From the sequence record NC_049342.1: a stretch of 39,179 nt of DNA; one strand, given 5' to 3'. Numbering within the stretch: position 1 is the stretch's first letter; each line of letters begins with the position of its first letter. The position numbers and the translations under genes were made by a program. This stretch comes from Escherichia phage 500465-1. Positions 1 to 39,179 of this stretch are shown here, in pieces. The notes under the pieces were generated by a model. That model saw only the letters and a list, made by a program, of their open reading frames with translations. It had not been told where the DNA came from and did not search any database.

Positions 1-4354
<4,354 letters not shown>

Positions 4355-5214: not shown

Positions 5215-5643
5215 ATGATCCAGCCAAAAGTTTTTATATCCTATAGTTGGTCAAGTAAAACTCATCAGCAACATATCAAAGATATAGCTGAACGATTGGC
5301 GGCAGATGGAGTTGAAACTGTCATAGATATTTATGACTTGAAAGAAGGGGATGATAAAAATTATTACATGGAAAGAATGGTTCAAGATGAAACGGTTACG
5401 CATGTTTTAGTTATTTGTGATAAAAAATACTCAGAAAAAGCCGATTTAAGAAAAGATGGTGTCGGTGTTGAGTCGATGATAATTTCCCAAGAAATATATT
5501 CATCCGTGTCGCAGTCCAAATTTATACCATTAATATTTGAGTACAAAGATAATGGAGAGCCGTATACTCCAATCTTTCTGAAGTCTAGAATCTATATTGA
5601 TTTTCAACACCAGAAAAAGAAAATGATAATTGGGAACGTTTAA
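5215..5643 (+). CDS. TIR/SEFIR-like domain protein (N-terminal part; probably continues downstream across frame breaks)
   Basis: RBS AAGGGAGG before ATG; N-terminus MIQPKVFISYSWSS typical of TIR-like domains; AT-rich codon usage. Confidence 0.6.
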   Translation: MIQPKVFISYSWSSKTHQQHIKDIAERLAADGVETVIDIYDLKEGDDKNYYMERMVQDETVTHVLVICDKKYSEKADLRKDGVGVESMIISQEIYSSVSQSKFIPLIFEYKDNGEPYTPIFLKSRIYIDFQHQKKKMIIGNV

Positions 5644-6124
5644 TCAGGTTGCTTTATGGAAAACCAGAATTTACTAAGCCACCATTAGGTAAGCCTCCGG
5701 TTTATTTAGAGCAAGACACGTCAAAACCGACGTATGAAATTCATGCAAAATTTCAAACTTTAAAATCAGCTGTCTTAAATCAAAAGCAGACATTAAAGGA
5801 TTGCAGAAGGCAATTTTTAGAGGTGTGCCGAAATTATTGTATCTCACTACAAGTCGTAACAAACCCAAACTACTGAAGATTTTGCAGCGGAAGTTTTGCA
5901 AATTCATAAAGAGCTTATTGCCGTTAGGGATGCCATTACAGACTGGGTTTTTACTTGAGGGTGATACGCAGGGCGAAGACTTTTCCAAAGCACTATTACA
6001 GTTTATGGAAGTAATGTTAGCGATTAGAAATCGTCCGAAAAATGTAAATTCATATAATGAAATATGGTTTTTGCCCCATAAGATTTTTGCGTATGAAACG
6101 TTTTATATATTTTGGCGGCTTTAA
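5601..6124 (+). CDS. Probable C-terminal continuation of the TIR-like protein (or separate hypothetical genes), frame-interrupted
   Basis: Overlapping ORFs in three frames (5601..5876, 5860..5955, 5738..6124); frame 0 reads ENDNWERLIRLLYGKPEF right after the poly-A run at 5613-5623. Confidence 0.3.
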
Positions 6125-6205
6125 TAAAAAATTGAAGCTTTCCAGCATGTACATACATTACTGCATACATCTTATTTGCTACCCGATCATATAACCAGTC
6201 CGGGA

Positions 6206-6517
6206 ATGGAGTTTGCTAATTACAGTGAGTTATATTTAAGCTCTGATTACCTTCAAAGTAAATTGTCCCCTGAAAACTATCGACTGTATTCCCCTGTTGC
6301 TGAGTTAGTAAAGCAAAGTGCAACTAGAGATGATGTGTCTTTCGATGATTTGAAACAAGCTGATCTTGTTGCTCTTATGATATCCTTCATTAATCCCAGT
6401 ATTTTTGGTACCCGCAAATGTTGTTGTATTCCGGGCACTATGAGAAATATCCTCTATTTACAAGAGCAATACAGCATAGAGGATTCAGAGTATTGCAGTT
6501 ATTACCGGAATCGATGA
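6206..6517 (+). CDS. Hypothetical protein (103 aa) at the end of the AT-rich island
   Basis: ORF MEFANYSELYLSSDYLQ...; the frame is also open upstream from 6128 (TTG at 6176); no recognisable domain. Confidence 0.35.
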   Translation: MEFANYSELYLSSDYLQSKLSPENYRLYSPVAELVKQSATRDDVSFDDLKQADLVALMISFINPSIFGTRKCCCIPGTMRNILYLQEQYSIEDSEYCSYYRNR

Positions 6518-6654
6518 CAGTAAACTTTTGGCTCAAAAGCTGACAGAGGGTGAGGCCCAGCGAAATACTAGCAACTGGTATCATTTCGGTTTTAATAGAG
6601 ACTTTCTCAATCAAATGAATGTTAGTCGCCTAGATAGTATTGAATGAAAATTAG

Positions 6655-6680
6655 AGGGCGCTTTGCAAAGCGCTCTCTGT
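6655..6680. terminator. Hairpin between convergent cargo genes and portal gene (possible bidirectional terminator)
   Basis: AGAGGGCGCTTTGCAAAGCGCTCTCT near-perfect palindrome next to the Q stop. Confidence 0.35.
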
Positions 6681-6681
6681 A

Positions 6682-7720
6682 TTAGTTTTCAATATCTAAG
6701 GTGTAGGGCTCAAAGCGGATCACTTCTTCGCCCAGCCAGTCGTTAAGCTCCTGCAGTCGCTTCTGCAGCGGCATCAGCTCGTTGCGGACAAAGACGCGGC
6801 TGGCCTTTTCCACATCACCAAGCCGCCGTATTGTTGGGAATGATGCCCATCATCTGCGGCGGCACGCGGTGAGCAGCCATCATGTCATCACGGCTCACGT
6901 TCTTGATGTTCAGAAATTCATCCTTTGCTGCAACTTCCGACAACGGGATTATCTGGATGCCGTCCTTTTTACCGTTGGGCGAATACATAAACAGGTTGCG
7001 GAAGTTGCCCGGCCCTTTGGCGCTTTTCATTGCCTGGCGGATATTGTTCACGTCCTCCTGATTCTGTGCTGCGTCGGTCATGTACATGATGAAACCCGCG
7101 TGGCTGCCGTTGATGTAATACTTCCGGCGAAACAGCGTTGCTGACTCGTTGAGCAGGGTTGACGGGATGGCGGAGAGATAGCCGGGCAGCCCGTAAATCT
7201 CCTGATTAATATCCGGTTCCAGCAGATGAAAGATGTTGCCCTGCGTAAATTCATAGGGCTGCGTGGTCATGCCATACTGCACAAACCAGTAGGTGTCGAG
7301 ATCCACGCCGCGCCGTGTGTACTTCGCCAGTGCTGGCTCCAGCGAGAGAACGCCGCCGACCCGGTTGGTGCGCTTTTCCAGATAGGCGTTACCGAACACC
7401 AGATAATCCTGGACGAAACGGGCAAAAGCCTGCTGGCTGAGCAGGCGGTGCGGGATATAGGTACTGCTGAGAATGTCACGCTTAACGGCAATCGGTGAGC
7501 TGTGATGCACGGCGGCGCGATAGGTCCGCGCCAGTCCGTCAAAGCTCACCGGCGGTTCATACCAGCGATCCATCTGCACGCATTCCACGTAGTCCAGCAA
7601 TTCGCGTCGGTCTAACACCGGCACCGGGTCGCCAAAGCTGAACGCCTCTGCCGCAGCACCGCCTGAATTTGCGTTGTGATATACTGCTGCGCGGTTATTC
7701 TTGTTTTTACGTTTGCTCAT
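6682..7720 (-). CDS. Q: Portal protein (P2 gpQ homolog), one frame break near 6822-6832
   Basis: N-terminal 301 aa match P2 Q (FGDPVPVLDRRELLDYVECV...); C-terminus ...GDVEKASRVFVRNELMPLQ readable in the shifted frame to a stop at 6682. Confidence 0.85.
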
Positions 7721-8439
7721 GCCGCCTGCTCCTTGTCAGTCTGGGCCATTCGCACATAAACAGCATTTTCCAGTCCTCTGCTGATAACTCTTTTTTCATG
7801 TCATTAAGCCATTCATCATCAAAGAGCGCGGCTCCGGTTGCGAGCGTTGCCCCGGATGCTGCAGCGTCATCAGCGGTAAAATCATGCTGGTTGTGCTGTT
7901 GCGGGCAATCAGCTTCTTGTATTCCCGCCATGCTTCCGGGCTGGGGCTTGGGTGGTGTAGTAGGTAGCGTGATAGCGCGCGTGCATGGACAGGCTTTTGG
8001 CGAGCGCAATCATATTTTTCGGGGAGTCCGCCCAGGCATACTCTGACACATAGACGTTTCCATGGAGCGCGGCGGCGAGACTTTTCGGCCCGATAAAATA
8101 AATGACCGCACCGTTAGGTAGTTCCAGATGCGCTTTACCTGATTTTATTTTCCCAAGGTGTGTCCAGGTTGCGGCCTGATCTATAAAGGCTGACATATAG
8201 GTTTTGACTGTCAGGGCGGATGCCGGGGTGCAGCCAAGAAAAATCTGGTTGCGTCCGGTATGCAGTGCATCGTTCAGGGCTTCGTAGGCGAAAAAGAAAT
8301 CCGCGCCAGCCTGATGCATTTTTGTAAGCACACGGTTTCTGCTGCGTGCGCCGCTGTTCCATTCATGCTGGTAAGCAAAGAAAGGGCGATCTACAGGCAG
8401 GCTGGCGGTGGTCATGAGGTTAGTTGGGGTTGAGTGCAT
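7707..8439 (-). pseudogene. Terminase-large-subunit-like paralog fragment between P and Q
   Basis: Two overlapping ORFs 7909..8439 and 7707..8009; FFFAYEALNDALHTGRNQIFL and LFDDEWLNDMKKELSAEDWKMLFMCEW parallel P residues about 135-400; ATG overlaps P stop (TGATG). Confidence 0.5.
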
Positions 8440-10205
8440 CAGAAAATCTCCACAATGTTGCTGGTATTGGCGGCTTCGCCCTGCAGCGGTTCGTTAAACA
8501 GTGCGTGCATCGTTGCCCAGGCCAAATCTGCGTGGCTGGCTTCTTCGCTGCGGCTGGCTTCGTAGGTAGGTCGGTTGCCGCTGGCGGTGGTGGCCCGGCG
8601 GATAGCCATAAAGGACTGCGCAATGTCAGTGTGTCCGGCGTCAAACTCCAGACGGCGGTGGCTGATGATGTCGTAGGCCTTGAGCACCAGGGCGTTTTTG
8701 ACGTTGGGGTTGTAGACAAACTCCCGCACGGCAGGAAAGAACGCTTTCACGTTCTCGTAGACACCGTGACCGACGCCTGTCGAGTCGATGCCGATATAGG
8801 TCACGTTGTACTGCTGCGTCAGTTTTTTAATGGCGTCAGCCTGGGCGCGGAAGTCCATCCCGCGCCACTGGTGTCGCTCCAGAATGCGGAACTTGCCGCC
8901 CGGCACGGTTGGCGGTGCCACCACCACGCACCCGGCGCTGTCACCGTTCTGCGTGCCTTTCGCCGGGTCGTATCCGATCCAGACTTCGCGCCAGCCAAAC
9001 GGGCGCAGGGCCAGTGCATTAAAGTCGGTCCAGACTTCCCAACTGTCCACCATGCACGCCTGCAGCTCGCTGAGCGGAAACACGGACGCGAGATCGTCCA
9101 CAAACTCGCACATCAGTAGGTTCTGGTATTCGTCCGGGCTGTACTCCATGCGCAACTGGTCGAGGTCGAACAGGTTACAGCCGCCGCGCACCGCATCTTC
9201 CACAGTGACTATCTGGCGGTACTGTCCGTCAGGGCAGAGCAGGCCGCGCGCAAGATTGCTGTGGGTCAGGTCAATATCCACCTTGTCCGCTTTGGCGCGG
9301 CCCCGGTTAAACAGCGCACCGGACCAGAACGGATAGGCACTGTGGGTCAGGCTGGACGGCGTGGAAAAGTAGGTTTGTCGCCATTTCTTGTGAATGGCCA
9401 TCCCGGAGGCAACTTTGCGCAGTTCCTGGAATTTCGGTATCCAGAAATATTCATCAAGGTACAGGTTGCCGTGGTAGCTCTGCGCCGTACGGGCGTTGGT
9501 GCCGAGAAAGTACAATGTTGCGCCATTAGGTAGCACCATAGGATCGCCTTTCAGCTCCACCTCAACTTCTTTGGCAAAGTCGATGATGTACTGCTTAAAG
9601 ACGTGCGCCTGTGCCTTACTGGCAGAAAGGAAAATCTGGTTACGTCCGGTAAGCAGGGCGTCAATCAGGGCTTCACGGGCAAAGTAAAAGGTCGCGCCGA
9701 TCTGGCGTGACTTCAGCAGGTTGCGGATGCGGTTGGTTTTTCCGGCTTCCCACCAGTGGCGCTGGTAGTTGAACATGGAGGAATAAAAGATTTCTTCCAG
9801 CTTCTCAATCTGTTCATCGGTGAAAACGTTCTTTTCCGGCTGACGGCGCGGGCCTTTGTTGCGGTTGGCGACGTTAGGGTTTAAGTCGGCTTCGTTGCCG
9901 CCATTGTTAAACTTGCCGATCCGCGCATGGCGCTCCGACTGGCGCGCCAGCAGGTCAATCTCTTTGAAATCTTTCCCTTCTTTGTGCTCCTTCATAATGA
10001 GCTGGCAGTAGCGTGCGGCGGTGGTGAGCTGCATCTGATCCAGCGGCCCATAGTCACCCCACTTGTCGCGTTTTTTCCAGCTGTGAACGGTTGCAACTTT
10101 CTCGCCCAGCATTTCAGCAATGCGGGCTACGCGGTATCCCTGAAAGTACAGCAGCATGGCCTGCCGACGGGGATCGAGATCTGCGGGTGTCAGTGTGGTG
10201 TTCAT
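8439..10205 (-). CDS. P: Terminase large (ATPase) subunit, P2 gpP homolog
   Basis: 588-aa intact ORF with P2 gpP-like sequence throughout. Confidence 0.9.
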   Translation of the reverse strand: MNTTLTPADLDPRRQAMLLYFQGYRVARIAEMLGEKVATVHSWKKRDKWGDYGPLDQMQLTTAARYCQLIMKEHKEGKDFKEIDLLARQSERHARIGKFNNGGNEADLNPNVANRNKGPRRQPEKNVFTDEQIEKLEEIFYSSMFNYQRHWWEAGKTNRIRNLLKSRQIGATFYFAREALIDALLTGRNQIFLSASKAQAHVFKQYIIDFAKEVEVELKGDPMVLPNGATLYFLGTNARTAQSYHGNLYLDEYFWIPKFQELRKVASGMAIHKKWRQTYFSTPSSLTHSAYPFWSGALFNRGRAKADKVDIDLTHSNLARGLLCPDGQYRQIVTVEDAVRGGCNLFDLDQLRMEYSPDEYQNLLMCEFVDDLASVFPLSELQACMVDSWEVWTDFNALALRPFGWREVWIGYDPAKGTQNGDSAGCVVVAPPTVPGGKFRILERHQWRGMDFRAQADAIKKLTQQYNVTYIGIDSTGVGHGVYENVKAFFPAVREFVYNPNVKNALVLKAYDIISHRRLEFDAGHTDIAQSFMAIRRATTASGNRPTYEASRSEEASHADLAWATMHALFNEPLQGEAANTSNIVEIF

Positions 10206-30061: not shown

Positions 30062-30424
30062 TGGTGGAGCTGGCGGGAGTTGAACCCGCGTCCGAAATTC
30101 CTACATCCTCGGTACTACATGCTTAGTCAGTCTTTACATTCGCTTGCCAGCTGCGGACGGACACGCCACTAACAAACTAGCCTGATTAAGTTTTAACGCT
30201 TCAACCCCAGGCAGGGCTTCCACGCGATCTCTTTTGGGTTTGACCTCTCTTGATCCCCGTCCTAAGAGCGGAGGCTAGGGAGAGAGGGCTCTAAGCAGGT
30301 TATTAAGCTGCTAAAGCGTAGTTTTCGTCGTTTGCGACTATTTTTTGCGGCTTTTTACGAGGCCAACCGCCCCTCGGCATGCACCTTGGGTTTCGCAAAT
30401 CCCGTCGAATCCAGAATCAGCCCC
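30062..30424 (-). ncRNA. ssrA: tmRNA (SsrA)
   Basis: Reverse complement reads GGGGCTGATTCTGGATTCGACGGG...GGGTTCAACTCCCGCCAGCTCCACCA, the E. coli tmRNA. Confidence 0.95.
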
Positions 30425-30638
30425 AATGTGTAAAGGTAAGTATACCAGATTTATGAGCGCCATGACCAGCCTCAATGGCGTTATCGTTAAAGATTTAGCA
30501 CCCATGTAGCCTGATTTTTATTCGATTAAGCAATGGGATGGCAACATTTGTGTCGGATGTGATAGCCAATAAGATGTTCATTCGCGCCGCCGGAGAGGGA
30601 GGCGCGGTGAGGAACTGGTCAATAATTGGAGTGCAGGT

Positions 30639-31121
30639 TTAACGGTGGGCGTTTTTCATGATACGTGCTTTATCCACCTGCCATTCGCGTTCTTTGATAT
30701 CTGAACGTTTATCGTGCTGTTTTTTACCTTTGGCGACGCCGATTTTCACTTTGCACCAGGCATTTTTCCAGTACAGGGAGAGCGCCACTACGGTATAGCC
30801 TTCTCGATTGACGCGACCGTACAATGAGTCCAGTTCGCGCTGGTTGAGAAGTAACTTGCGGGTACGGGTAGGATCGCACACCACATGCGTGGAGGCCACG
30901 GCCATTGGCGTGATGTTAGCGCCAAACAGAAATGCCTCTCCGTCACGCAGAAGGACGTAGCTGTCGCTGATATTGGCTTTTCCTGCGCGCAGGGATTTAA
31001 CCTCCCAGCCTTGCAGGGCAAGTCCCGCTTCGAACTCTTCTTCGATAAAGTATTCGTGACGGGCGCGCTTGTTAAGCGCGATGGTCGCTGAACCAGGTTT
31101 ATGTGCTTTTTTCTTCGTCAT
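30639..31121 (-). CDS. smpB: SsrA-binding protein SmpB
   Basis: 160 aa, near-identical to E. coli SmpB. Confidence 0.95.
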
Positions 31122-31252
31122 AAGCGTCGTGAATCATCGGTAATCTGAAATCGAAAACACCCCATATCAATCCTGCGGGGGACAAGGCTCTATCTTAGCA
31201 TGAACCCGATGTTACCCAGCGCCGGGATAGCGTTTTTTTTACAGCAGGATAA

Positions 31253-31729
31253 ATGATATTATTCGTTGGATTTTTGTTGATGGAAATTGTTATGCCTCAG
31301 ATTAGCCGGACCGCACTGGTACCCTACAGCGCGGAGCAAATGTATCAGTTAGTGAATGACGTTCAGTCTTATCCTCAGTTTTTGCCGGGTTGTACCGGAA
31401 GTCGGATTCTGGAGTCCACTCCTGGTCAGATGACTGCGGCGGTAGATGTCTCTAAGGCTGGGATCAGCAAAACGTTTACTACCCGCAACCAGTTGACCAG
31501 TAACCAAAGTATTCTTATGAATCTGGTGGATGGGCCGTTCAAGAAATTGATTGGTGGATGGAAGTTTACGCCGCTGAGCCAGGAGGCGTGTCGTATCGAG
31601 TTTCATCTCGACTTTGAGTTTACCAATAAGTTGATTGAACTCGCCTTTGGTCGCGTGTTTAAAGAGCTGGCGTCTAATATGGTCCAGGCTTTTACGGTTC
31701 GTGCGAAAGAGGTTTACAGTGCCAGGTAA
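31253..31729 (+). CDS. ratA: Ribosome association toxin RatA (YfjG)
   Basis: 158 aa matching E. coli RatA/YfjG. Confidence 0.85.
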
Positions 31730-32009
31730 AATTGCCGTTGAGGTGGCTTATGCGCTACCTGAGAAGCAGTACCTGCAGCGCGTGACGCTGCAGGAGGGCG
31801 CGACGGTTGAAGAAGCTATTCGCGCCAGTGGCTTGCTGGAATTGCGTACCGATATCGATTTAACTAAAAACAAAGTCGGCATTTACAGCCGTCCGGCAAA
31901 ACTAAGCGATAGTGTGCATGATGGCGATCGGGTGGAGATTTATCGCCCTCTCATTGCCGATCCGAAAGAGCTTCGCAGGCAACGAGCAGAAAAATCAGCG
32001 AATAAATAA
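31719..32009 (+). CDS. ratB: RnfH-family protein RatB (YfjF)
   Basis: GTG start overlapping the ratA end; [25 protein letters not shown]... Confidence 0.75.
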
Positions 32010-32021
32010 CAGACAGAAAAA

Positions 32022-32046
32022 AGGTGCTCATTGAGCACCTTTTTTA
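32022..32046. terminator. Bidirectional Rho-independent terminator between ratB and bamE
   Basis: AGGTGCTCA-T-TGAGCACCT followed by TTTTTT. Confidence 0.55.
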
Positions 32047-32070
32047 ACGTCTTTGAGAGCAACTTTATTA

Positions 32071-32412
32071 TTAGTTACCACTCAGCGCAGGTTTGTTATC
32101 AATATTGGTCAACACACCGCTACTGTTAAAGGTCAGCGTCAGCGTTTGCTGCGTTACACCTTCATGACCTGGTTGCTGGCGGAAGACATAGAACCAGGTA
32201 TTCGTACCAAATGGATCGGACATCAGCGGTGTACCCAATGCGTACGCAACTTGTTGTTGCGTCATGCCAACACGTATTTTGGATACGTCGTTAGCGGTCA
32301 GATAGTTCCCCTGGTTGATGTCAGGACGGTAAACCACTCGCTCCAGAGTGGAACAGCCTGCGGTCAACATCAATAGTACTGCTGCTGCAGCAGTCAGCGT
32401 TTTACAGCGCAT
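32071..32412 (-). CDS. bamE: Outer membrane protein assembly factor BamE (SmpA)
   Basis: 113 aa with lipobox LTAGC, matches E. coli BamE. Confidence 0.9.
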
Positions 32413-32560
32413 AGTGATTTGATTCCTTTTCGGGCCCGAGCAGTACGTGGCTCATCTGTAATATGCCGATGATAATAGACCTTTCATCACTTTAAAACCT
32501 TTTGCTTTCCGGTCTTACGGCGTTTTGCTGTTTACTCTGACCGTGAAGCAGGAAAAAAGT

Positions 32561-34222
32561 TTACGCTGCAAGCAGTTCTTTCGCATTCGCCAGTGTATTA
32601 CGTGTGACTTCACTGCCACCAAGCAGGCGCGCCAGCTCTTGTAACCGCGCTTTTTTATTCAGGGATTGCATATGCGTTTCTGTCATCGCACCATCGGTTT
32701 CTTTGCTGACAAAATAGTGTTGATGACCACATCCCGCGACTTGTGGCAGGTGGGTAACACACATCACCTGAGTTGATTCGCCGAGTTGACGCAGCAGTTT
32801 GCCGACAACTGCCGCTGTTGGACCGCTAATCCCTACATCCACTTCATCAAAAATCAGTGCCGGGGTTTCCATTTTACGCGCCGTGATGACCTGGATTGCC
32901 AGTGCGATGCGGGACAATTCACCACCGGATGCGACTTTGGCAATAGGCTGCATTGGCTGACCTGGGTTGGTGGTTACCCGAAACTCAATACGATCGGCAC
33001 CGTCAGCGCCCAGGTGATGCTCGTCAAATTTAACATCGATCGTAAACTGCCCATGCGGCATTGAGAGCGCATGCATACTGTCGGTGATCAGCTGTGCAAG
33101 TTCTTCTGCATATTGCTGGCGTTGTTGGTGTAATGCGCGCGCGATTTCCAGTGCCTGCTGATGATGTTTCGTTACCGCCAGCGCAAGCGTTTCTTGTGAG
33201 TCGGCCTGATCGTCCAGTTGCTGCTGTTCTTCCAGTAGCGACTGGTAATACTGTGGCAATGCCTCAGGGCTGACGTGATGTTTACGTGCCAGCGAAATCT
33301 GTTTTGAGATGCGCTGTTCAAGTTCAAATAGTCGGTTGGGATCGAGATCCAGACGATCGCAGTAGTGGCGCAGTTCATCGCTGGCTTCAGCAATCTGGAT
33401 GGTAGCTTCTTCCAGCATATCAAGTACGCCGGACAGTTTGCTGTCCATGCCAATCAATTCGCTCACCAGTTGTTTAGCCGTGTAAAGCTGACTTTGCAGG
33501 TTTGCGTCTTCACCGTCGGCCATTAATGCCAATGCATTCTGGCTGGTGGTCAGCAATTGACCGCTGTTCGCCAGACGTTTGTACTCTTCGTCGATTTGTT
33601 CAAACTCTCCGGGCTGCGGATTAAATTCGTTAAGTTCTTTTAATTGGTATTGCAGCAGTTCCGCACGGGCAGCGCGTTCCTGACTTAACTGTTGATGATG
33701 CGCGAGGTCACGGCAGCTTTGATGCCACAACTGATAACGTGCTGTCATTTCCTGGAGTAGAGAGGTTTCATTGGCATAGCCATCAAGCAGGAACTTTTGG
33801 TGCTCGGGTTTGGTGAGTAACTGATGAGCGTGCTGACCATGGATCTGAATCAGCAACTGACCCAGTTCGCGCAGTTGTGACAGAGGAACAGCTGTACCGT
33901 TGATGAAACCACGGGAGCGACCATCGCTGCTGATCACGCGACGAAGCAAACATTCATGCCCGTCTTCAAGCTGGTTTTCTTCCAGCCAGCGCAGAGCCGC
34001 TGGCGTATCTTTCAGAGAAAAACGGGCGCACAGGTCAGCGCGAGCAGCGCCGGTACGCACCATGTCGGCTTCAGCGCGACCACCGAGACAAAGACCGAGG
34101 GCATCTATTGCAATAGATTTACCCGCGCCGGTCTCGCCAGTTATTACGGTCATGCCGCTATGAAAATCAATCTCAAGCTCACGAACGATAGCAAAGTTGC
34201 TGATGGTCAGTTGTGCCAACAT
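32561..34222 (-). CDS. recN: DNA repair protein RecN
   Basis: 553 aa; N-terminal Walker A GETGAGKS. Confidence 0.95.
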
Positions 34223-34246
34223 AGTCGTTTTCCTGTATGAAAACCA

Positions 34247-34266
34247 TTACTGTTATTGTGTACAGT
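34247..34266 (+). promoter_or_regulatory. LexA box in the recN promoter
   Basis: TACTGTTATTGTGTACAGTA (CTGT-N8-ACAG); a second, one-base-short box follows at 34271-34285. Confidence 0.6.
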
Positions 34267-34305
34267 ATAAACTGTTTTATATACAGTAAAGAGGCTGGCG
34301 TAAAA

Positions 34306-35183
34306 TTAGAATAATTTTTTTGACCAGCCGAGCTTGGTGCTTAATGTGTTGAAATAACTGTAATCTTTCGGATGAATCAGATTCAGATGGTAATCACAGC
34401 GACGAATCAGGACATCTTCACCTTCCTGAATCGGCAGTGCTATCTGGCTGTCGCAACTGATTTCCAGGTCGTTACGGCGATGCGAAAAACGCAGACGGAT
34501 CGTGCTGCTGCTGTTTATGACCAGTGGTCGTGCTGACAACGTATGCGGGAACATGGGCACCAGGGTAATCGCATCCAGAGAGGGGGTCAGAATAGGACCG
34601 CCTGCAGAGAGGGAATAGGCGGTGGAGCCTGTTGGCGTCGAAATAATTAGTCCATCAGATCGCTGAGAAAACGCAAAGATCTCGTCGATATACACTTCGA
34701 ACTCAATCATATGCGCCACTTTGCCTGGATGAAGCACCACTTCATTTATCGCGGTGCTGATGCGTTTCTGGCAATCTTGCTGACAGACTTGCGCTTCCAG
34801 CAAAAAACGTTTCTCGCTGATGTAGTGGCCTTCCAGCACATCGGCTAACTGTTGCTGGGCGTTATCGGGGTCAAGGTCAGTCAGGAAAACCCAGGTTGCC
34901 ACGGTTGATTCCAATAACTTAATATCGTAACGGGCGAGTGTGCGTGCCGCGCCCAGCATATTACCGTCGCCACCAACGACTACCGCGAGATCAGCTAGTT
35001 GCCCAATCTCCGCGAGCGTGCCAGTTTTCACATTCTTCAGTTGCAGTTCGTGAGCGATTTGTTGCTCAACGATGACCTCGTAACCTTTTGTGCACAGCCA
35101 GCGGTAGAGCATTTCATGTGTTGTCAGTGCAGTGGGGTGCCGTGGGTGTCCCACAATGCCAATACACTTGAATGATTATTCAT
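34306..35183 (-). CDS. nadK: NAD kinase NadK, with apparent indels
   Basis: Matches E. coli NadK except local frame breaks near the N-terminus and around YDIK...FLTDLDP; the length is not a multiple of 3. Confidence 0.85.
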
Positions 35184-35231
35184 TTTTCCGAGGTCCTTGT
35201 TACGAAGATTGATGACAATGTGAGTGCTTCC

Positions 35232-35259
35232 CTTGAAACCCTGAAACTGATCCCATAAT
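35232..35259 (+). promoter_or_regulatory. Sigma-32 heat-shock promoter of grpE
   Basis: CTTGAAA -35 and CCCATAAT -10 elements upstream of grpE. Confidence 0.6.
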
Positions 35260-35271
35260 AAGCGAAGTTAG

Positions 35272-35898
<627 letters not shown>

Positions 35899-35951
35899 TT
35901 TCTGTTTTCGTAATAATTCACGGCCTGCATGCGAATGCAGGGCCGTTTTCG

Positions 35952-37214
35952 TTACTCCGCCACACTCTCGCGCAGCGGTTTTACAGGAAAGACTTTTACC
36001 TGCTTAATCATATTGTCCTGAACGTCGAGAATATCGATATCGTACTCGCCAATATGCACGCGGGTGCCAGCGACAGGGATCTCTTCCAGAGCTTCAAGAA
36101 TGACGCCATTAACCGTGCGGGCATCGTCTTCAGGTAGATGCCAGTTAAAGGCTTTGTTGATTTCCCGCACGTTGGCGGTGCCATCGATAATCACCGAACC
36201 GTCGTTTTGCGGCGTGACCTCTTCGGCAAGTGTTGGCGACATCGACGTAGTGAAATCGCCGACAATCTCTTCCAGAATATCTTCAACCGTCACCAGCCCC
36301 TGAATGTCTCCATACTCGTTGACGACCAGGCCGACTTTCTTTTTGTTGCGCTGAAACTTTACCAACTGCGTGCTGAGCGGCGTACCTTCCGGCACAAAAT
36401 AGATCTCGTCCGCGGCGCGCAGCATGGTTTCTTTGGTGAACTCTTTTTTCTCCGACATCAACCGCCAGGCTTCACGTACTCGCAGCATACTGATGGCGTC
36501 GTCCAGCGAATCACGGTAGAGCACGATGCGCCCGTGAGGTGAGTGGGAGAGTTGGCGCAGAATCGATTTCCAGTCATCGTTGATATCAATACCGATAATT
36601 TCACTGCGCGGCACCATGATGTCATCAACGGTCATTTTTTCCAGATCGAGCACCGACAGCAGCATATCCTGATTGCGACGGGAAATTTGTGAGCGTGATT
36701 CGTGCACGATAGTGCGCAACTCTTCTTTGCTCAAAGAGCCGCTAACCACGATATCGGTTTTGATACCCATCATGCGCATCAGCATACGGGTGATAGCATT
36801 CAGCAACCAGACCAGCGGCATCATCAAAATTTGCAGCGGAGCCAGCAGAAAACTACTCGGATAAGCGACTTTTTCCGGGTACAGCGCGGCAATGGTTTTC
36901 GGCAATACCTCAGCAAATACCAGTACGACAAAAGTCAGCACACCAGTCGCAATTGCCACGCCCGCATCGCCGTACAAACGCATCCCAACAATAGTGCCGA
37001 GCGCGGAGGCAAGAATATTGACCAGGTTATTGCCGATTAACACCAGGCTTATCAGGCGGTCTGGCTTACGCAGCAATTTTTCGACGCGTTTGGCCGAGCG
37101 ATTACCCTGTTTCGCCATATGTCGCAGACGATAGCGGTTGAGGGTCATCATTCCGGTTTCGGACCCGGAAAAATAGGCTGAAATGACCACCATGATGATC
37201 AGAATAATGATCAA
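35952..37214 (-). CDS. yfjD: CBS/CorC-domain inner membrane transporter-like protein (YfjD family)
   Basis: 420 aa with N-terminal transmembrane region and CBS-pair region; the true start may lie slightly upstream. Confidence 0.85.
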   Translation of the reverse strand: MIIILIIMVVISAYFSGSETGMMTLNRYRLRHMAKQGNRSAKRVEKLLRKPDRLISLVLIGNNLVNILASALGTIVGMRLYGDAGVAIATGVLTFVVLVFAEVLPKTIAALYPEKVAYPSSFLLAPLQILMMPLVWLLNAITRMLMRMMGIKTDIVVSGSLSKEELRTIVHESRSQISRRNQDMLLSVLDLEKMTVDDIMVPRSEIIGIDINDDWKSILRQLSHSPHGRIVLYRDSLDDAISMLRVREAWRLMSEKKEFTKETMLRAADEIYFVPEGTPLSTQLVKFQRNKKKVGLVVNEYGDIQGLVTVEDILEEIVGDFTTSMSPTLAEEVTPQNDGSVIIDGTANVREINKAFNWHLPEDDARTVNGVILEALEEIPVAGTRVHIGEYDIDILDVQDNMIKQVKVFPVKPLRESVAE

Positions 37215-37258
37215 CGTAGTAGTAGAAATGTGTTCCAGGGGAAACTCCTTTTCTGGGT

Positions 37259-38050
37259 TTAGCTGATTAACTGCTGGACAATTCGGCTGCCGAAGTAGGC
37301 CAGTGTCAGAATTACCGCGCCCGCAACGTTAAACCAGACGACGCGGCGTCCACGCCATCCTTCATGGTAATGTCCCCACAGCAGCACAATATAGACAAAC
37401 CACGCCACGATAGAGAGCACAGCCTTGTCGATATTTTCCATGCTAAATAGGTTGTGCATGTAGAACAGGCCAGTGCAAAGCGTGAGCGTTAGCAGCACCA
37501 CGCCAATCTGCGTGATGTGGAACATTTTACGCTCGATACTCATCAATGGCGGCATTTCCTGGTTAAATGCCAGCTTCTTGTTCTTCAGTTGGTAATCAAT
37601 CCACGCCAGTTGCAGCGCGTACAGGGCGGCGATAATTAGCGTGGCATAGGAAAAGAGCGATAAGCCAATGTGCACCAGCATCCCAGGCGTTGCTTCCAGA
37701 TGGGTGATGTATTCATTGGGCATGAAGGTCGCCAGCGCCAGGTTGATAAGCGCAAAGGCATAGACAATGGGTAGCAGCAACCAGCCACGATTGCGAGAAG
37801 CCACAATGGTCATTACCGTACAGATCATCAAACTGACCAATGAACCAACGTTCAGCAGGCTGAGGTTTTGTCCGCTATCACCGTCGGGCAGGATGCGGGC
37901 TTCCAGAGCGATTGCGTGGCAGACCAGCGCAATGACCGCAGAAATAATAGCCATGCGCCGCCAGCCGCCGTTTTTTTGCAGCAGACCGGGAACAATCAGC
38001 GCAAGACTGACGGAGTAGGCGACAAGCGCGAGCAGAGCAAAAACGGGCAT
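37259..38050 (-). CDS. ypjD: Inner membrane protein YpjD (cytochrome c assembly-like)
   Basis: Internal start MPVFALLALVAYS gives a 263-aa multi-pass membrane protein; the ORF track start at 38125 is probably an over-extension. Confidence 0.8.
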   Translation of the reverse strand: MPVFALLALVAYSVSLALIVPGLLQKNGGWRRMAIISAVIALVCHAIALEARILPDGDSGQNLSLLNVGSLVSLMICTVMTIVASRNRGWLLLPIVYAFALINLALATFMPNEYITHLEATPGMLVHIGLSLFSYATLIIAALYALQLAWIDYQLKNKKLAFNQEMPPLMSIERKMFHITQIGVVLLTLTLCTGLFYMHNLFSMENIDKAVLSIVAWFVYIVLLWGHYHEGWRGRRVVWFNVAGAVILTLAYFGSRIVQQLIS

Positions 38051-38216
38051 AGTGATGTCGACAGTTTGAGCAATAAGAAAGAGAAGCAGTATAGCGTCAG
38101 GTGAACGCTGCTCCAACCGTTGCATAACAACAAAGACGCCTTCATGTTATACTGCGGCAAAATACTGATGATGTGTCGCGATTGCGGCCAACCGTTTCCA
38201 CCCCAGGCGAGAGACA

Positions 38217-39179
38217 ATGTTTGATAATTTAACCGATCGTTTGTCGCGCACGCTGCGCAATATCAGTGGCCGTGGACGCCTCACTGAAGACAACGTAAAA
38301 GATACGCTGCGCGAAGTGCGCATGGCGCTGCTGGAGGCGGACGTCGCTCTGCCGGTAGTGCGTGAGTTTATCAATCGCGTAAAAGAGAAAGCGGTTGGTC
38401 ATGAAGTTAATAAGAGCCTGACGCCGGGGCAGGAGTTCGTCAAAATCGTCCGTAACGAACTGGTTGCGGCGATGGGCGAAGAGAACCAGACCCTGAACCT
38501 GGCGGCGCAACCGCCTGCGGTCGTGCTGATGGCGGGCCTGCAAGGTGCCGGTAAAACAACCAGCGTTGGTAAACTCGGTAAGTTCCTGCGCGAGAAGCAC
38601 AAGAAGAAAGTGCTGGTGGTTTCTGCCGACGTTTATCGCCCGGCGGCAATCAAACAGCTTGAGACGCTGGCAGAGCAGGTGGGCGTTGATTTCTTCCCTT
38701 CTGATGTTGGTCAGAAGCCGGTAGATATCGTTAACGCGGCGCTGAAAGAAGCCAAACTGAAATTCTACGACGTGCTGCTGGTGGATACCGCTGGTCGTCT
38801 GCACGTTGACGAAGCGATGATGGACGAGATCAAACAAGTCCATGCGTCGATTAACCCGGTTGAAACCCTGTTTGTGGTTGACGCCATGACCGGTCAGGAT
38901 GCGGCCAATACGGCAAAAGCATTCAATGAAGCGTTACCGCTTACCGGCGTAGTGTTGACCAAAGTGGACGGCGATGCCCGCGGCGGTGCGGCGCTCTCTA
39001 TTCGTCACATCACTGGCAAACCGATCAAGTTTCTCGGTGTTGGCGAGAAAACTGAGGCGCTGGAGCCGTTCCATCCGGACCGCATCGCGTCGCGTATTCT
39101 CGGCATGGGCGACGTACTGTCGCTGATCGAAGATATCGAAAGCAAAGTTGACCGCGCGCAGGCAGAGAAATTAGCCAGC
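38217..39179 (+). CDS. ffh: Signal recognition particle protein Ffh, 3' partial
   Basis: MFDNLTDRLSRTLRNISGRGRLTEDNVKDTLREVRMALLEADVALPVV and GTPase motifs; runs off the window end. Confidence 0.95.
   Translation, partial: MFDNLTDRLSRTLRNISGRGRLTEDNVKDTLREVRMALLEADVALPVVREFINRVKEKAVGHEVNKSLTPGQEFVKIVRNELVAAMGEENQTLNLAAQPPAVVLMAGLQGAGKTTSVGKLGKFLREKHKKKVLVVSADVYRPAAIKQLETLAEQVGVDFFPSDVGQKPVDIVNAALKEAKLKFYDVLLVDTAGRLHVDEAMMDEIKQVHASINPVETLFVVDAMTGQDAANTAKAFNEALPLTGVVLTKVDGDARGGAALSIRHITGKPIKFLGVGEKTEALEPFHPDRIASRILGMGDVLSLIEDIESKVDRAQAEKLAS

Follow-up and report, generated by a model that had tools for sequence, protein, structure and literature searches.

The window analysed here, the whole 39,179-nucleotide stretch of Escherichia phage 500465-1 (sequence record NC_049342.1), carries between its large terminase gene P and its portal gene Q a gene that, judged by protein comparison, is a divergent member of the coliphage 186 W family and hence of an already known and annotated kind. 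The product is a stand-alone paralogue of the ATPase domain of the large terminase (TerL), and we consider it probable, though well short of certain, that this W-family copy, encoded between terL and the portal gene, acts as an accessory, non-motor packaging partner. The genes and signals concerned are as follows:

8439..10205, minus strand: P, the P2-type large terminase gene (terL), with Terminase_5 HTH, Terminase_6N ATPase and Terminase_6C nuclease domains; its stop codon overlaps the W start
7717..8439, minus strand: W-like gene for a stand-alone TerL ATPase-domain paralogue, present as ORFs 8439..7909 and 8009..7707; Pfam Terminase_6N only; BLASTP against 186 W, E 1e-33
8448..8451, minus strand: Shine-Dalgarno sequence GGAG, within the 3' end of P and 8 nt 5' of the W ATG
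6682..7720, minus strand: portal gene Q, with an ATG that overlaps the stop codon of W (ATGA)
6652..6679, no strand given: GC-rich hairpin with T tracts, directly after Q; candidate terminator of the P-W-Q operon

A first-pass annotation of this DNA had described the gap between P and Q as filled by terminase-like sequence, and this is borne out: about 720 bp lie between P and the Q start at 7720 on the minus strand, and the ATG of the gene (8439-8437) overlaps the P stop codon, as had been observed, by one shared A (TGATG). The downstream end had been set at 7707, whereas the gene in fact ends with the TGA at 7717-7719, a stop codon overlapping the start of Q. Stop/start overlaps are found at both ends of W in the window and in the loci of relatives that we examined (14 of 16 W-bearing genome loci, the remaining 2 being degraded), and these overlaps, together with the Shine-Dalgarno sequence of W itself, indicate coupling of W translation to that of P upstream and Q downstream, in support of the translational coupling suggested earlier. 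W is transcribed within the late P-Q operon, and the hairpin at 6652..6679 is the likely terminator of the P-W-Q operon, the counterpart of P2 tQ and 186 tW; no internal promoter or terminator was detected in W above chance. The GC content of W (0.52-0.55) resembles that of P and Q, while that of the neighbouring SEFIR gene, a cargo gene adjoining Q, is low (0.34-0.38). We rejected a foreign origin of W on the strength of this native composition. We likewise rejected the idea that W is defence cargo of a P2 hotspot (a moron), given its native GC content, the lack of promoter and terminator signals of its own and the lack of a meaningful PADLOC match.

The likeness of W to P is significant in a formal alignment (BLASTP E 2e-32), at a measured identity of 31% rather than the 60% or so estimated by eye, and it extends over P residues 145-368 rather than 135-400. 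As the first reading had it, the N-terminal region and the nuclease part of P are absent: Pfam finds in W a single Terminase_6N domain (proteins of ~225-255 aa) and neither the Terminase_5 HTH nor Terminase_6C, and the protein ends at the lid motif, lacking the joined RNase H-like nuclease domain that marks TerL proper. Compared with P2-type gpP and 186 Orf12, W has a homologous ATPase domain and keeps the Q motif, Walker A Lys, catalytic Glu, C motif and lid end motif; it differs from them in having no HTH or nuclease, in its altered Mg-ligand residues, in evolving ~2.5-fold faster (relative to the ATPase region of P) and in not being universal. According to an AF2 model (pLDDT 82, pTM 0.82), W folds as a complete TerL ATPase domain, and the best PDB matches of the model in Foldseek are the TerL ATPase domains of T4 gp17, P74-26 and D6E. 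The isolated T4 gp17 N360 and P74-26 TerL 1-256 fragments match the model in both fold and extent (Foldseek E 2e-8 to 2e-6, TM ~0.6-0.68), but these are engineered motor truncations, whereas W occurs in nature as a gene of its own and its active site has diverged. The link to TerL structures came via the fold search only, since a sequence search of solved structures with a W-family profile returned no terminase; NCBIfam gave no model match for W, and PADLOC gave a match at chance level only.

The slot that W occupies holds a gene already on record in 186. Gene W of 186, annotated as 'W protein; similar to Orf12' (AAC34147 / NP_052250; U32222 1215..1961), shares 32% identity with the window protein (BLASTP E 1e-33), and the depositors of U32222 put the 'W protein' ORF in the B-activated late orf12 operon. 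The same P-W-Q slot is common to 186 W, EtG_02, the genes of three Yersinia phages, 16 of 16 W-bearing species-representative loci and the distant members examined, and the same-strand order with overlapping stop and start codons is shared by the window, 186, EtG and the Yersinia phages; E. coli copies carry the NCBI label 'terminase large subunit domain-containing protein'. The first-pass annotation had proposed looking for a gene at this position in related prophages and had reckoned that an ordinary known gene there would tell against its reading. Such a gene is present in E. coli 503440, in phage vB_YpM_MLG42 and in 186, where W lies in the exact slot, and the premise that Q directly follows P is true of P2 itself but not of 186-type and several other Peduoviridae. 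In a neighbour-joining tree the W proteins are monophyletic with respect to all P proteins (100% of 500 bootstraps), and W probably traces back to a single ancient duplication of the ATPase domain in a P2-type large terminase. Across Enterobacterales W is conserved to ~23-35% identity and is always ~225-255 aa long, with its length, domain boundaries and coupling overlaps kept at 30-40% identity. Reportedly, W was genetically defined as a 186 head-morphogenesis gene by Hocking and Egan in 1982 and by Portelli and colleagues in 1998.

The window gene and 186 W are alike in arrangement, with a P homologue (Orf12) followed by W and a Q homologue (Orf2), overlapping stop and start codons and a place in the late operon, and alike in product, a protein of ~240-250 aa that consists of the TerL ATPase domain only and falls in the same clade apart from P. 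They differ in that the motifs of 186 W are the canonical KSRQIGAT and LDE and its lid carries an insertion of ~30 aa, whereas window-type W has KM(R/H)QAGAD and VSE and no such insertion. T4 vs.8 is comparable to W as a small stand-alone homologue of the ATPase domain of its own phage's TerL, encoded beside a full TerL, but it belongs to the T4 gp17 lineage, does not lie between terL and the portal gene, keeps canonical Walker A and B motifs and triggers EcAvs2 (PMC13601566). Our search of the literature turned up nothing specific on what 186 W does, nor on paralogues in P2-like phages that consist of the terminase ATPase domain only; in the genome note on EtG, EtG_02 and EtG_03 are described as 'two subunits of the terminase', with no evidence given, and the gene goes unmentioned in the Yersinia phage paper and in a 2026 paper on P2-like diversity.

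In the window W is indeed split into two frames, as was first reported, but the split is almost certainly not genuine. It comes from three 1-nt homopolymer deletions, each identified by comparison with the E. coli 503440 prophage:

~7949: GGGG run lacking one G; first apparent frameshift, at which the 176-aa ORF stops
~7877: AAAAA run lacking one A; second apparent frameshift
~7742: GGGG run lacking one G; third apparent frameshift

Over 8.8 kb the window and this prophage differ by 0 substitutions and 19 single-base homopolymer indels, and over 30.1 kb by 1 mismatch and 28 gaps. Because an otherwise identical prophage differs by homopolymer indels and the gene is uninterrupted in relatives, the frame split of W is almost certainly a sequencing or assembly error. 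Intact W is 726 bp long and encodes 241 aa, and an identical uninterrupted copy lies at 4068-4793 of L001. The intact 726-bp gene was seen in both relatives inspected, E. coli 503440 and vB_YpM_MLG42, the second of which is an isolated plaque-forming phage, and an annotated gene lies under the match in vB_YpM_MLG42 and in 10 E. coli genomes (93-99.6% DNA identity). Q is also broken in the window, by two homopolymer deletions (~6821 and ~6827), and the SEFIR gene is broken likewise; homopolymer errors run through the whole window and call for caution with its other genes. The E. coli 503440-type prophage carries IS100 inserted in gene A and is defective in its own right.

W is under purifying selection (dN/dS 0.10-0.38). 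We considered whether W could nevertheless be a non-functional remnant, that is, a recombination scar or a decaying pseudogene. The broken frame of the window copy, the IS100 insertion in the prophage that hosts it and an Arg-to-His change in its Walker A motif would fit such a remnant, but all three breaks are homopolymer indels in a region where 19 such indels and no substitutions occur over 8.8 kb, no break interrupts the gene in the inspected relatives or in a plaque-forming phage, its dN/dS is well below 1, and its length, boundaries and overlaps have been held through deep divergence. We give a remnant almost no credence for W, and for the W family as a whole it is refuted. The finding as first posed dissolves, the gene being known and annotated and its frameshift an artefact: what was taken for a possible scar of recombination with a different P2-like phage is a gene intact in relatives, selectively constrained and conserved across Enterobacterales, and of the two origins first offered it was the truncated, ATPase-only paralogue that proved right, W having Terminase_6N only, being intact in relatives and evolving under purifying selection.

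Constraint on W is looser than on its neighbour, with a dN/dS 4-10 times that of P. W is also rare: it was detectable in 17 + 8 E. coli genomes against ~1218 that carry this type of P, or ~2% of P2-like prophages. In the contig scan, 64 of 80 loci were matches to P and not to W, the two being separated by ORF length. In strain 3502, P differs from the window P at 3 of 588 aa and Q follows directly, with no W between them. Because near-identical P alleles occur without W, W is dispensable for P function in general. Distances between W proteins correlate poorly with those of P (rho 0.27) and Q (0.30), compared with 0.82 for P against Q, although W distances are near saturation, so that the comparison gives no pointer to a binding partner. 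Fast-evolving, shuffled alleles of this kind would fit a dominant-negative competitor, one that leaves its own P unharmed but poisons the terminase rings of P2-like phages or satellites that reside in or infect the same cell, and a domain-precise, ATPase-only copy could insert into heterologous TerL rings. We nonetheless regard such a competitor as very unlikely: W would be expressed from the late operon only, together with a P of its own that is 99.5% identical to the P of W-less phages, so that discrimination of self from non-self is hard to see, and we know of no experimental precedent for it in the W family.

The active site of the window allele departs from that of TerL at two motifs, read from the sequence and from the family table:

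8299..8325, minus strand: Walker A-like T-K-M-H-Q-A-G-A-D
8041..8058, minus strand: Walker B-like N-V-Y-V-S-E

Terminase motifs are defined by a Walker A Arg at position 3 or 4 and a terminal Ser/Thr, and by a Walker B Asp followed by the catalytic Glu (PMC6379665). Against this definition KMHQAGAD and VYVSE retain only the Lys and the catalytic Glu: in Walker A the Lys is kept, the conserved Arg is replaced by His and the terminal Thr/Ser by Asp, and in Walker B the Asp is replaced by Ser. The Arg-to-His change may be simple decay. Members of the Enterobacterales clade have either GAT with DE or GAD with S/G/P/A-E, with no mixed state, and in a wider set every protein with the Walker A Asp lacks the Walker B Asp, while 4 of 21 others combine a Walker A Ser/Thr with loss of the Walker B Asp. 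Within the Enterobacterales W clade there is little or no variation in the Q motif, Walker A Lys, catalytic Glu or C motif, and since these elements are conserved, W probably still binds nucleotide. The Mg-ligand pair is rearranged and the window allele has lost the Walker A Arg, and robust ATP hydrolysis is therefore doubtful on motif grounds.

It is equally conceivable that the Thr-to-Asp and Asp-to-Ser changes compensate for each other and keep Mg-ATP chemistry intact, leaving W an active ATPase. W would then be a second active ATPase subunit of the motor or terminase holoenzyme, with its Mg-binding carboxylate relocated by compensation, and would power or gate cos cleavage, initiation or motor assembly. 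The near-invariance of the nucleotide-site residues and the lack of mixed motif states in the Enterobacterales clade fit this proposal, as do the fully canonical motifs of 186, EtG and Pectobacterium W and the possible essentiality of W in 186. The proposal fares worse with the near-identical P alleles that do without W, with the absence from the window allele of a nearly universal Walker A arginine, with the loss of the Walker A Lys or of the catalytic Glu from several related stand-alone paralogues, and with the raised dN/dS of W relative to P, and we think it improbable.

The accessory role that we favour accommodates the rarity of W, the near-identical P alleles without it, its fast evolution, the near absence of correlation between its distances and those of P and Q, the coupled active-site states and the paralogues lacking Lys or Glu. 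W would be made alongside TerL and the portal at packaging time, and its TerL-like surfaces would let it associate with the packaging machinery at the TerL ring, TerS or the portal; only homology, the place of W in the operon and its co-translation suggest an association with P, M or Q. Probably still able to bind nucleotide, and with its Mg-ligand pair rearranged (Asp for Thr in Walker A, Ser for Asp in Walker B), W would then have an accessory, regulatory part in packaging and would not itself be a motor that translocates DNA. Counting against this role, the weak co-variation of W with P and Q is unexpected for a tightly fitting motor subunit, although saturation of the W distances contributes to it. 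If amber mutants in 186 W are truly lethal, 'accessory' may be too weak a word for 186-type phages; any such lethality might instead stem from a polar effect on the portal gene, whose translation is coupled to that of W.

W might alternatively act outside packaging altogether, as an immune decoy or anti-defence mimic that titrates sensors of the TerL ATPase domain (Avs1-3 and Upx among them) or terminase-targeting inhibitors without activating them, or that is itself under pressure to escape them. The changes in W fall at the exact Mg-ligand residues, W is dispensable for P, its occurrence is patchy (the ~2% of E. coli P2-like prophages given above), its alleles evolve fast and are shuffled relative to P and Q, and related stand-alone paralogues have repeatedly lost catalytic residues, all of which would fit a decoy. 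We still hold a decoy to be unlikely: W would have to out-compete abundant TerL for sensors that fire at low occupancy, it has no match in PADLOC or among anti-defence families, it has a native composition, which the low-GC SEFIR cargo beside Q does not, and T4 vs.8, the sole comparable protein tested, activates EcAvs2 instead of blocking it (PMC13601566). In a broader form, to which we attach a similarly small chance, W proteins would be mimics of the TerL ATPase and not motors, serving either as a decoy or shield against terminase-sensing or terminase-targeting systems or as a checkpoint that gates the P motor. Under that scheme the strictly linked replacements (Walker A Thr by Asp, Walker B Asp by Ser, Gly, Pro or Ala) would rebuild or disable the Mg site, W would bind nucleotide or partners without hydrolysis, and an arms race would lie behind the cassette-like shuffling of W between its conserved flanks, P and Q.

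Members of the W family are terminase ATPase domains that occur naturally on their own; they are co-translated with TerL and the portal and are found in a small minority of otherwise near-identical P2-like phages. Phages 186, EtG and vB_YpM_MLG42 offer tractable systems in which to address the role of a second ATPase-domain protein at the packaging motor, and the same phages are also suited to the question of whether terminase mimics counter terminase-sensing immunity.

The first-pass annotation placed a stretch resembling the terminase ATPase between P, the P2-type large terminase (terL) gene, and Q, the portal gene, and two open reading frames (ORFs) that resemble the ATPase part of P are present there (henceforth W):

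10205..8439, minus strand: P, P2-type large terminase gene
8439..7909, minus strand: W-region ORF 1, 176 aa, resembling the ATPase part of P
8009..7707, minus strand: W-region ORF 2, 100 aa, in the other frame, overlapping ORF 1 and resembling the ATPase part of P
8 nt upstream of the ATG at 8439: GGAG
~7742, ~7877 and ~7949: 1-nt deletions within W relative to the prophage of E. coli 503440
7717-7719, minus strand: TGA stop codon of W, overlapping the start of Q
6682-7720, minus strand: Q, portal gene, with its start at 7720

Since these P-like ORFs lie between P and Q, and the A of the W ATG (8439) is common to the P stop codon (TGATG), the original observation is real. The translational coupling suggested from it is matched by the gene architecture, with the GGAG motif upstream of the W ATG and overlapping codons also at the junction of W and Q; no internal promoter or terminator above chance was detected in the P-W-Q region. 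W is compositionally native, with a GC content (0.52-0.55) akin to that of P and Q; that of the SEFIR-domain cargo gene adjoining Q is 0.34-0.38.

W had been described as split into two frames, and the split is indeed seen in the window, but it is an artefact of the three 1-nt deletions, all in homopolymers. Megablast matched the 851 bp W region to ten E. coli chromosomes at 93-99.6% identity and to vB_YpM_MLG42, an isolated Yersinia phage, at 96.6%, and in both copies inspected it is annotated as one uninterrupted gene of 726 bp; the intact product has 241 aa (WP_001717244). Compared with the 503440 prophage, the window has no substitutions and 19 single-base indels in 8.8 kb, all 19 in homopolymer runs, and 1 mismatch and 28 single-base gaps in 30.1 kb (window 1-30106), the homopolymer context having been inspected in detail for 19 of the indels. 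Window positions 30107-39179 gave no alignment to a 40.5 kb stretch of strain 503440. The lack of substitutions and the restriction of indels to homopolymers are the signature of sequencing or assembly error rather than decay, and any apparent frameshift in the window is a probable sequencing error. Further homopolymer deletions disrupt the SEFIR gene and Q, which looks truncated in the window (301 aa plus a 43-aa tail ORF) owing to deletions at ~6821 and ~6827 and is intact in relatives (346 aa). Unlike these artefactual breaks, the P-W-Q modules of two Candidatus Symbiopectobacterium loci from insect-symbiont genomes (L027 and L076), in which all three genes are fragmented, look like cases of genuine decay.

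The similarity between W and the window's own P is significant (BLASTP, E 2e-32, P residues 145-368), although the identity of 31% is half of the ~60% initially estimated by eye. As that estimate's authors had noted, W lacks the N-terminal region and the nuclease part of P: only Terminase_6N was found in W by Pfam, compared with Terminase_5 (HTH), Terminase_6N and Terminase_6C in P. PHROGs assigns W to phrog_3746, 'terminase large subunit'. An AlphaFold2 model based on a 46-sequence family alignment was confident (pLDDT 82, pTM 0.82), and the solved structures nearest to it are the ATPase domains of T4 gp17, P74-26 TerL and D6E TerL. The adenine-binding Q motif lies a few residues into W, whose other end coincides with that of the lid subdomain; W is thus a domain-precise excerpt of the TerL ATPase, not a random fragment. 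Of the two origins proposed at first pass, that of a truncated ATPase-only paralogue is correct and that of a recombination scar is not.

Relatives were also checked for an ordinary known gene at this position, and one was found. Whereas P2 has no gene between P and Q, coliphage 186 (U32222 1215..1961) has a gene annotated 'W protein; similar to Orf12', flanked by those of the P homologue (Orf12) and the Q homologue (Orf2), within the B-activated late operon that terminates at tW. In Erwinia phage EtG this position is filled by EtG_02, which carries the annotation 'similar to bacteriophage 186 W protein', and Yersinia phages vB_YenM_201.16 and 56.17 also have such a gene there. Window-type W and 186 W share 32% identity (E 1e-33). 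In a neighbour-joining tree of 225 shared columns, all 19 W-like proteins formed one clade apart from all 9 P proteins (100% of 500 bootstraps), consistent with a single ancient duplication of the ATPase domain and not with each phage having lately copied its own P. We are nearly certain that the window gene, its frameshift being artefactual, belongs to the 186 W family; it is a divergent new member of an already known family.

A word-indexed search returned 51 W relatives of 152-254 aa (45 of 225-254 aa, the others partial) from Escherichia, Salmonella, Citrobacter, Klebsiella, Leclercia, Phytobacter, Pantoea, Yersinia, Limnobaculum, Buttiauxella and metagenome entries. One match, a 190-aa E. 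coli 'tail fiber protein' (P0052; Pfam PF07484) that shares 89% identity with 26% of the W query, is possibly chimeric or mis-assembled. In a scan of species-representative genomes, 16 of 80 loci contained W, all in Enterobacterales and all in the order P-W-Q; the remaining 64, including those of Pseudomonas, Xanthomonas and Comamonas, were matches to P itself with Q directly adjacent. Distant members checked singly have the overlapping-codon arrangement likewise. About 1218 of 5426 complete E. coli genomes have a P within megablast range of the window's P; 17 complete E. coli genomes carry window-type or A38-type W and 8 carry 186-type W, a frequency (~2%) that must be taken as a minimum, since megablast misses divergent alleles. 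An exhaustive profile search added ~33 cluster representatives of stand-alone proteins (222-284 aa), some of them nearer to P than to W. One of these representatives, a 222-aa stand-alone Terminase_6N paralogue from a P2-like genome (L099, 3501-4169), has the catalytic Glu changed to Asn and the Walker A Lys to Ala; it lies between the lysis genes and gpR, and a gene of this type probably arose there independently. Given this other slot and the paralogues closer to P, stand-alone paralogues probably arose more than once.

For the same allele pairs, dN/dS was 0.10-0.38 for W, 0.025-0.07 for P and 0.007-0.05 for Q. Selection on W is purifying but relaxed, and the alternative that W is a pseudogene was refuted for the family. 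P does not generally require W: in the prophage of E. coli strain 3502, P differs from the window's P at 3 of 588 residues and is directly followed by Q. Across 17 loci, W distances were ~2.5 times those of the P ATPase region, and Spearman correlations were 0.27 (W with P), 0.30 (W with Q) and 0.82 (P with Q). Between the 503440 and A38 prophages, P is 98.5% identical and W only 74%; with 3502 included, identities are 98.5-99.5% for P and 85-88% for Q, whereas W is either missing or 74% identical. The near-identical P beside divergent or absent W and divergent Q indicates a recombination boundary at the P stop codon and W as an exchangeable cassette, the alleles of which have evidently been swapped between conserved P and Q flanks.

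The low-GC gene adjoining Q (window ~5215-6650, plus strand) is in four or five ORF pieces in the window; its intact counterpart in strain 503440 is a 477-aa SEFIR-domain protein (WP_001399243), a candidate anti-phage defence gene. This variable region encodes a hypothetical protein in A38 and DprA in 3502. IS100 (IS21 family, istA/istB; window ~2250-4050) lies inside phage replication gene A, fragments of which occupy ~1-2200 and 4130-4340, and the prophage is thus defective. In strain 503440, IS100 accompanied by gene A fragments is annotated twice, ~36 kb apart, and the P and W regions each give two matches, which suggests that the prophage is tandemly duplicated there.

In terminases, Walker A ends in Ser/Thr and has a conserved Arg as its third or fourth residue, and Walker B ends in an Asp that the catalytic Glu follows (PMC6379665); the P motifs are KSRQIGAT and LYLDE. 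Members of the Enterobacterales W clade show little or no variation in the Q motif, the Walker A Lys, the catalytic Glu and the C motif, and only two Mg-ligand states occur among them: a Walker A ending in GAT with a Walker B ending in DE (6/6; 186, EtG, Pectobacterium), and GAD with SE or GE (20/20 others). Among representatives of the wider set, the Walker B Asp is replaced by S, G, P or A in every one of the 12 that have a Walker A Asp and is kept in 17 of the 21 others, counts whose statistics are limited by phylogenetic non-independence. The variety of the replacing residues nevertheless shows that the position was repeatedly kept carboxylate-free once the Walker A Asp was present. This pattern is compatible with two readings: the Mg-binding carboxylate has been relocated in a compensated way, as expected if W were a truly active second ATPase (one of the main alternatives considered), or these proteins have an inactivated state in common. 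The Walker A Lys is missing, or the catalytic Glu is changed to N, Q or H, in several members of the wider family, so stand-alone paralogues do not all require hydrolysis. In the window allele (KMHQAGAD), His replaces the Walker A Arg, which close relatives such as MLG42 keep; as 503440-type prophages are defective, this change may be recent decay. A further main alternative, that W is an immune decoy or mimic, is prompted by the recognition of the terminase ATPase domain alone by Avs2 and Upx and by the contacts of Avs2 with the Mg shell of the active site, but the analogous T4 vs.8 protein triggers Avs2 (PMC13601566).

Overall, we regard as established for W its late-operon position, coupling architecture, TerL ATPase fold, purifying selection, dispensability for P and altered Mg site. 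We tentatively propose, at somewhat below even probability, that W would be made alongside TerL and portal at packaging time and would contact the packaging machinery through TerL-like surfaces as an accessory or regulatory partner, not as a translocating ATPase; a dominant-negative competitor is the other main alternative. 186 W has been described as a head gene defined by conditional-lethal mutants. If so, phages of the 186 type need W in their own setting, or else these mutations exert polarity on the portal gene coupled to W. The finding as first posed is of low interest, and the family itself is of moderate interest.
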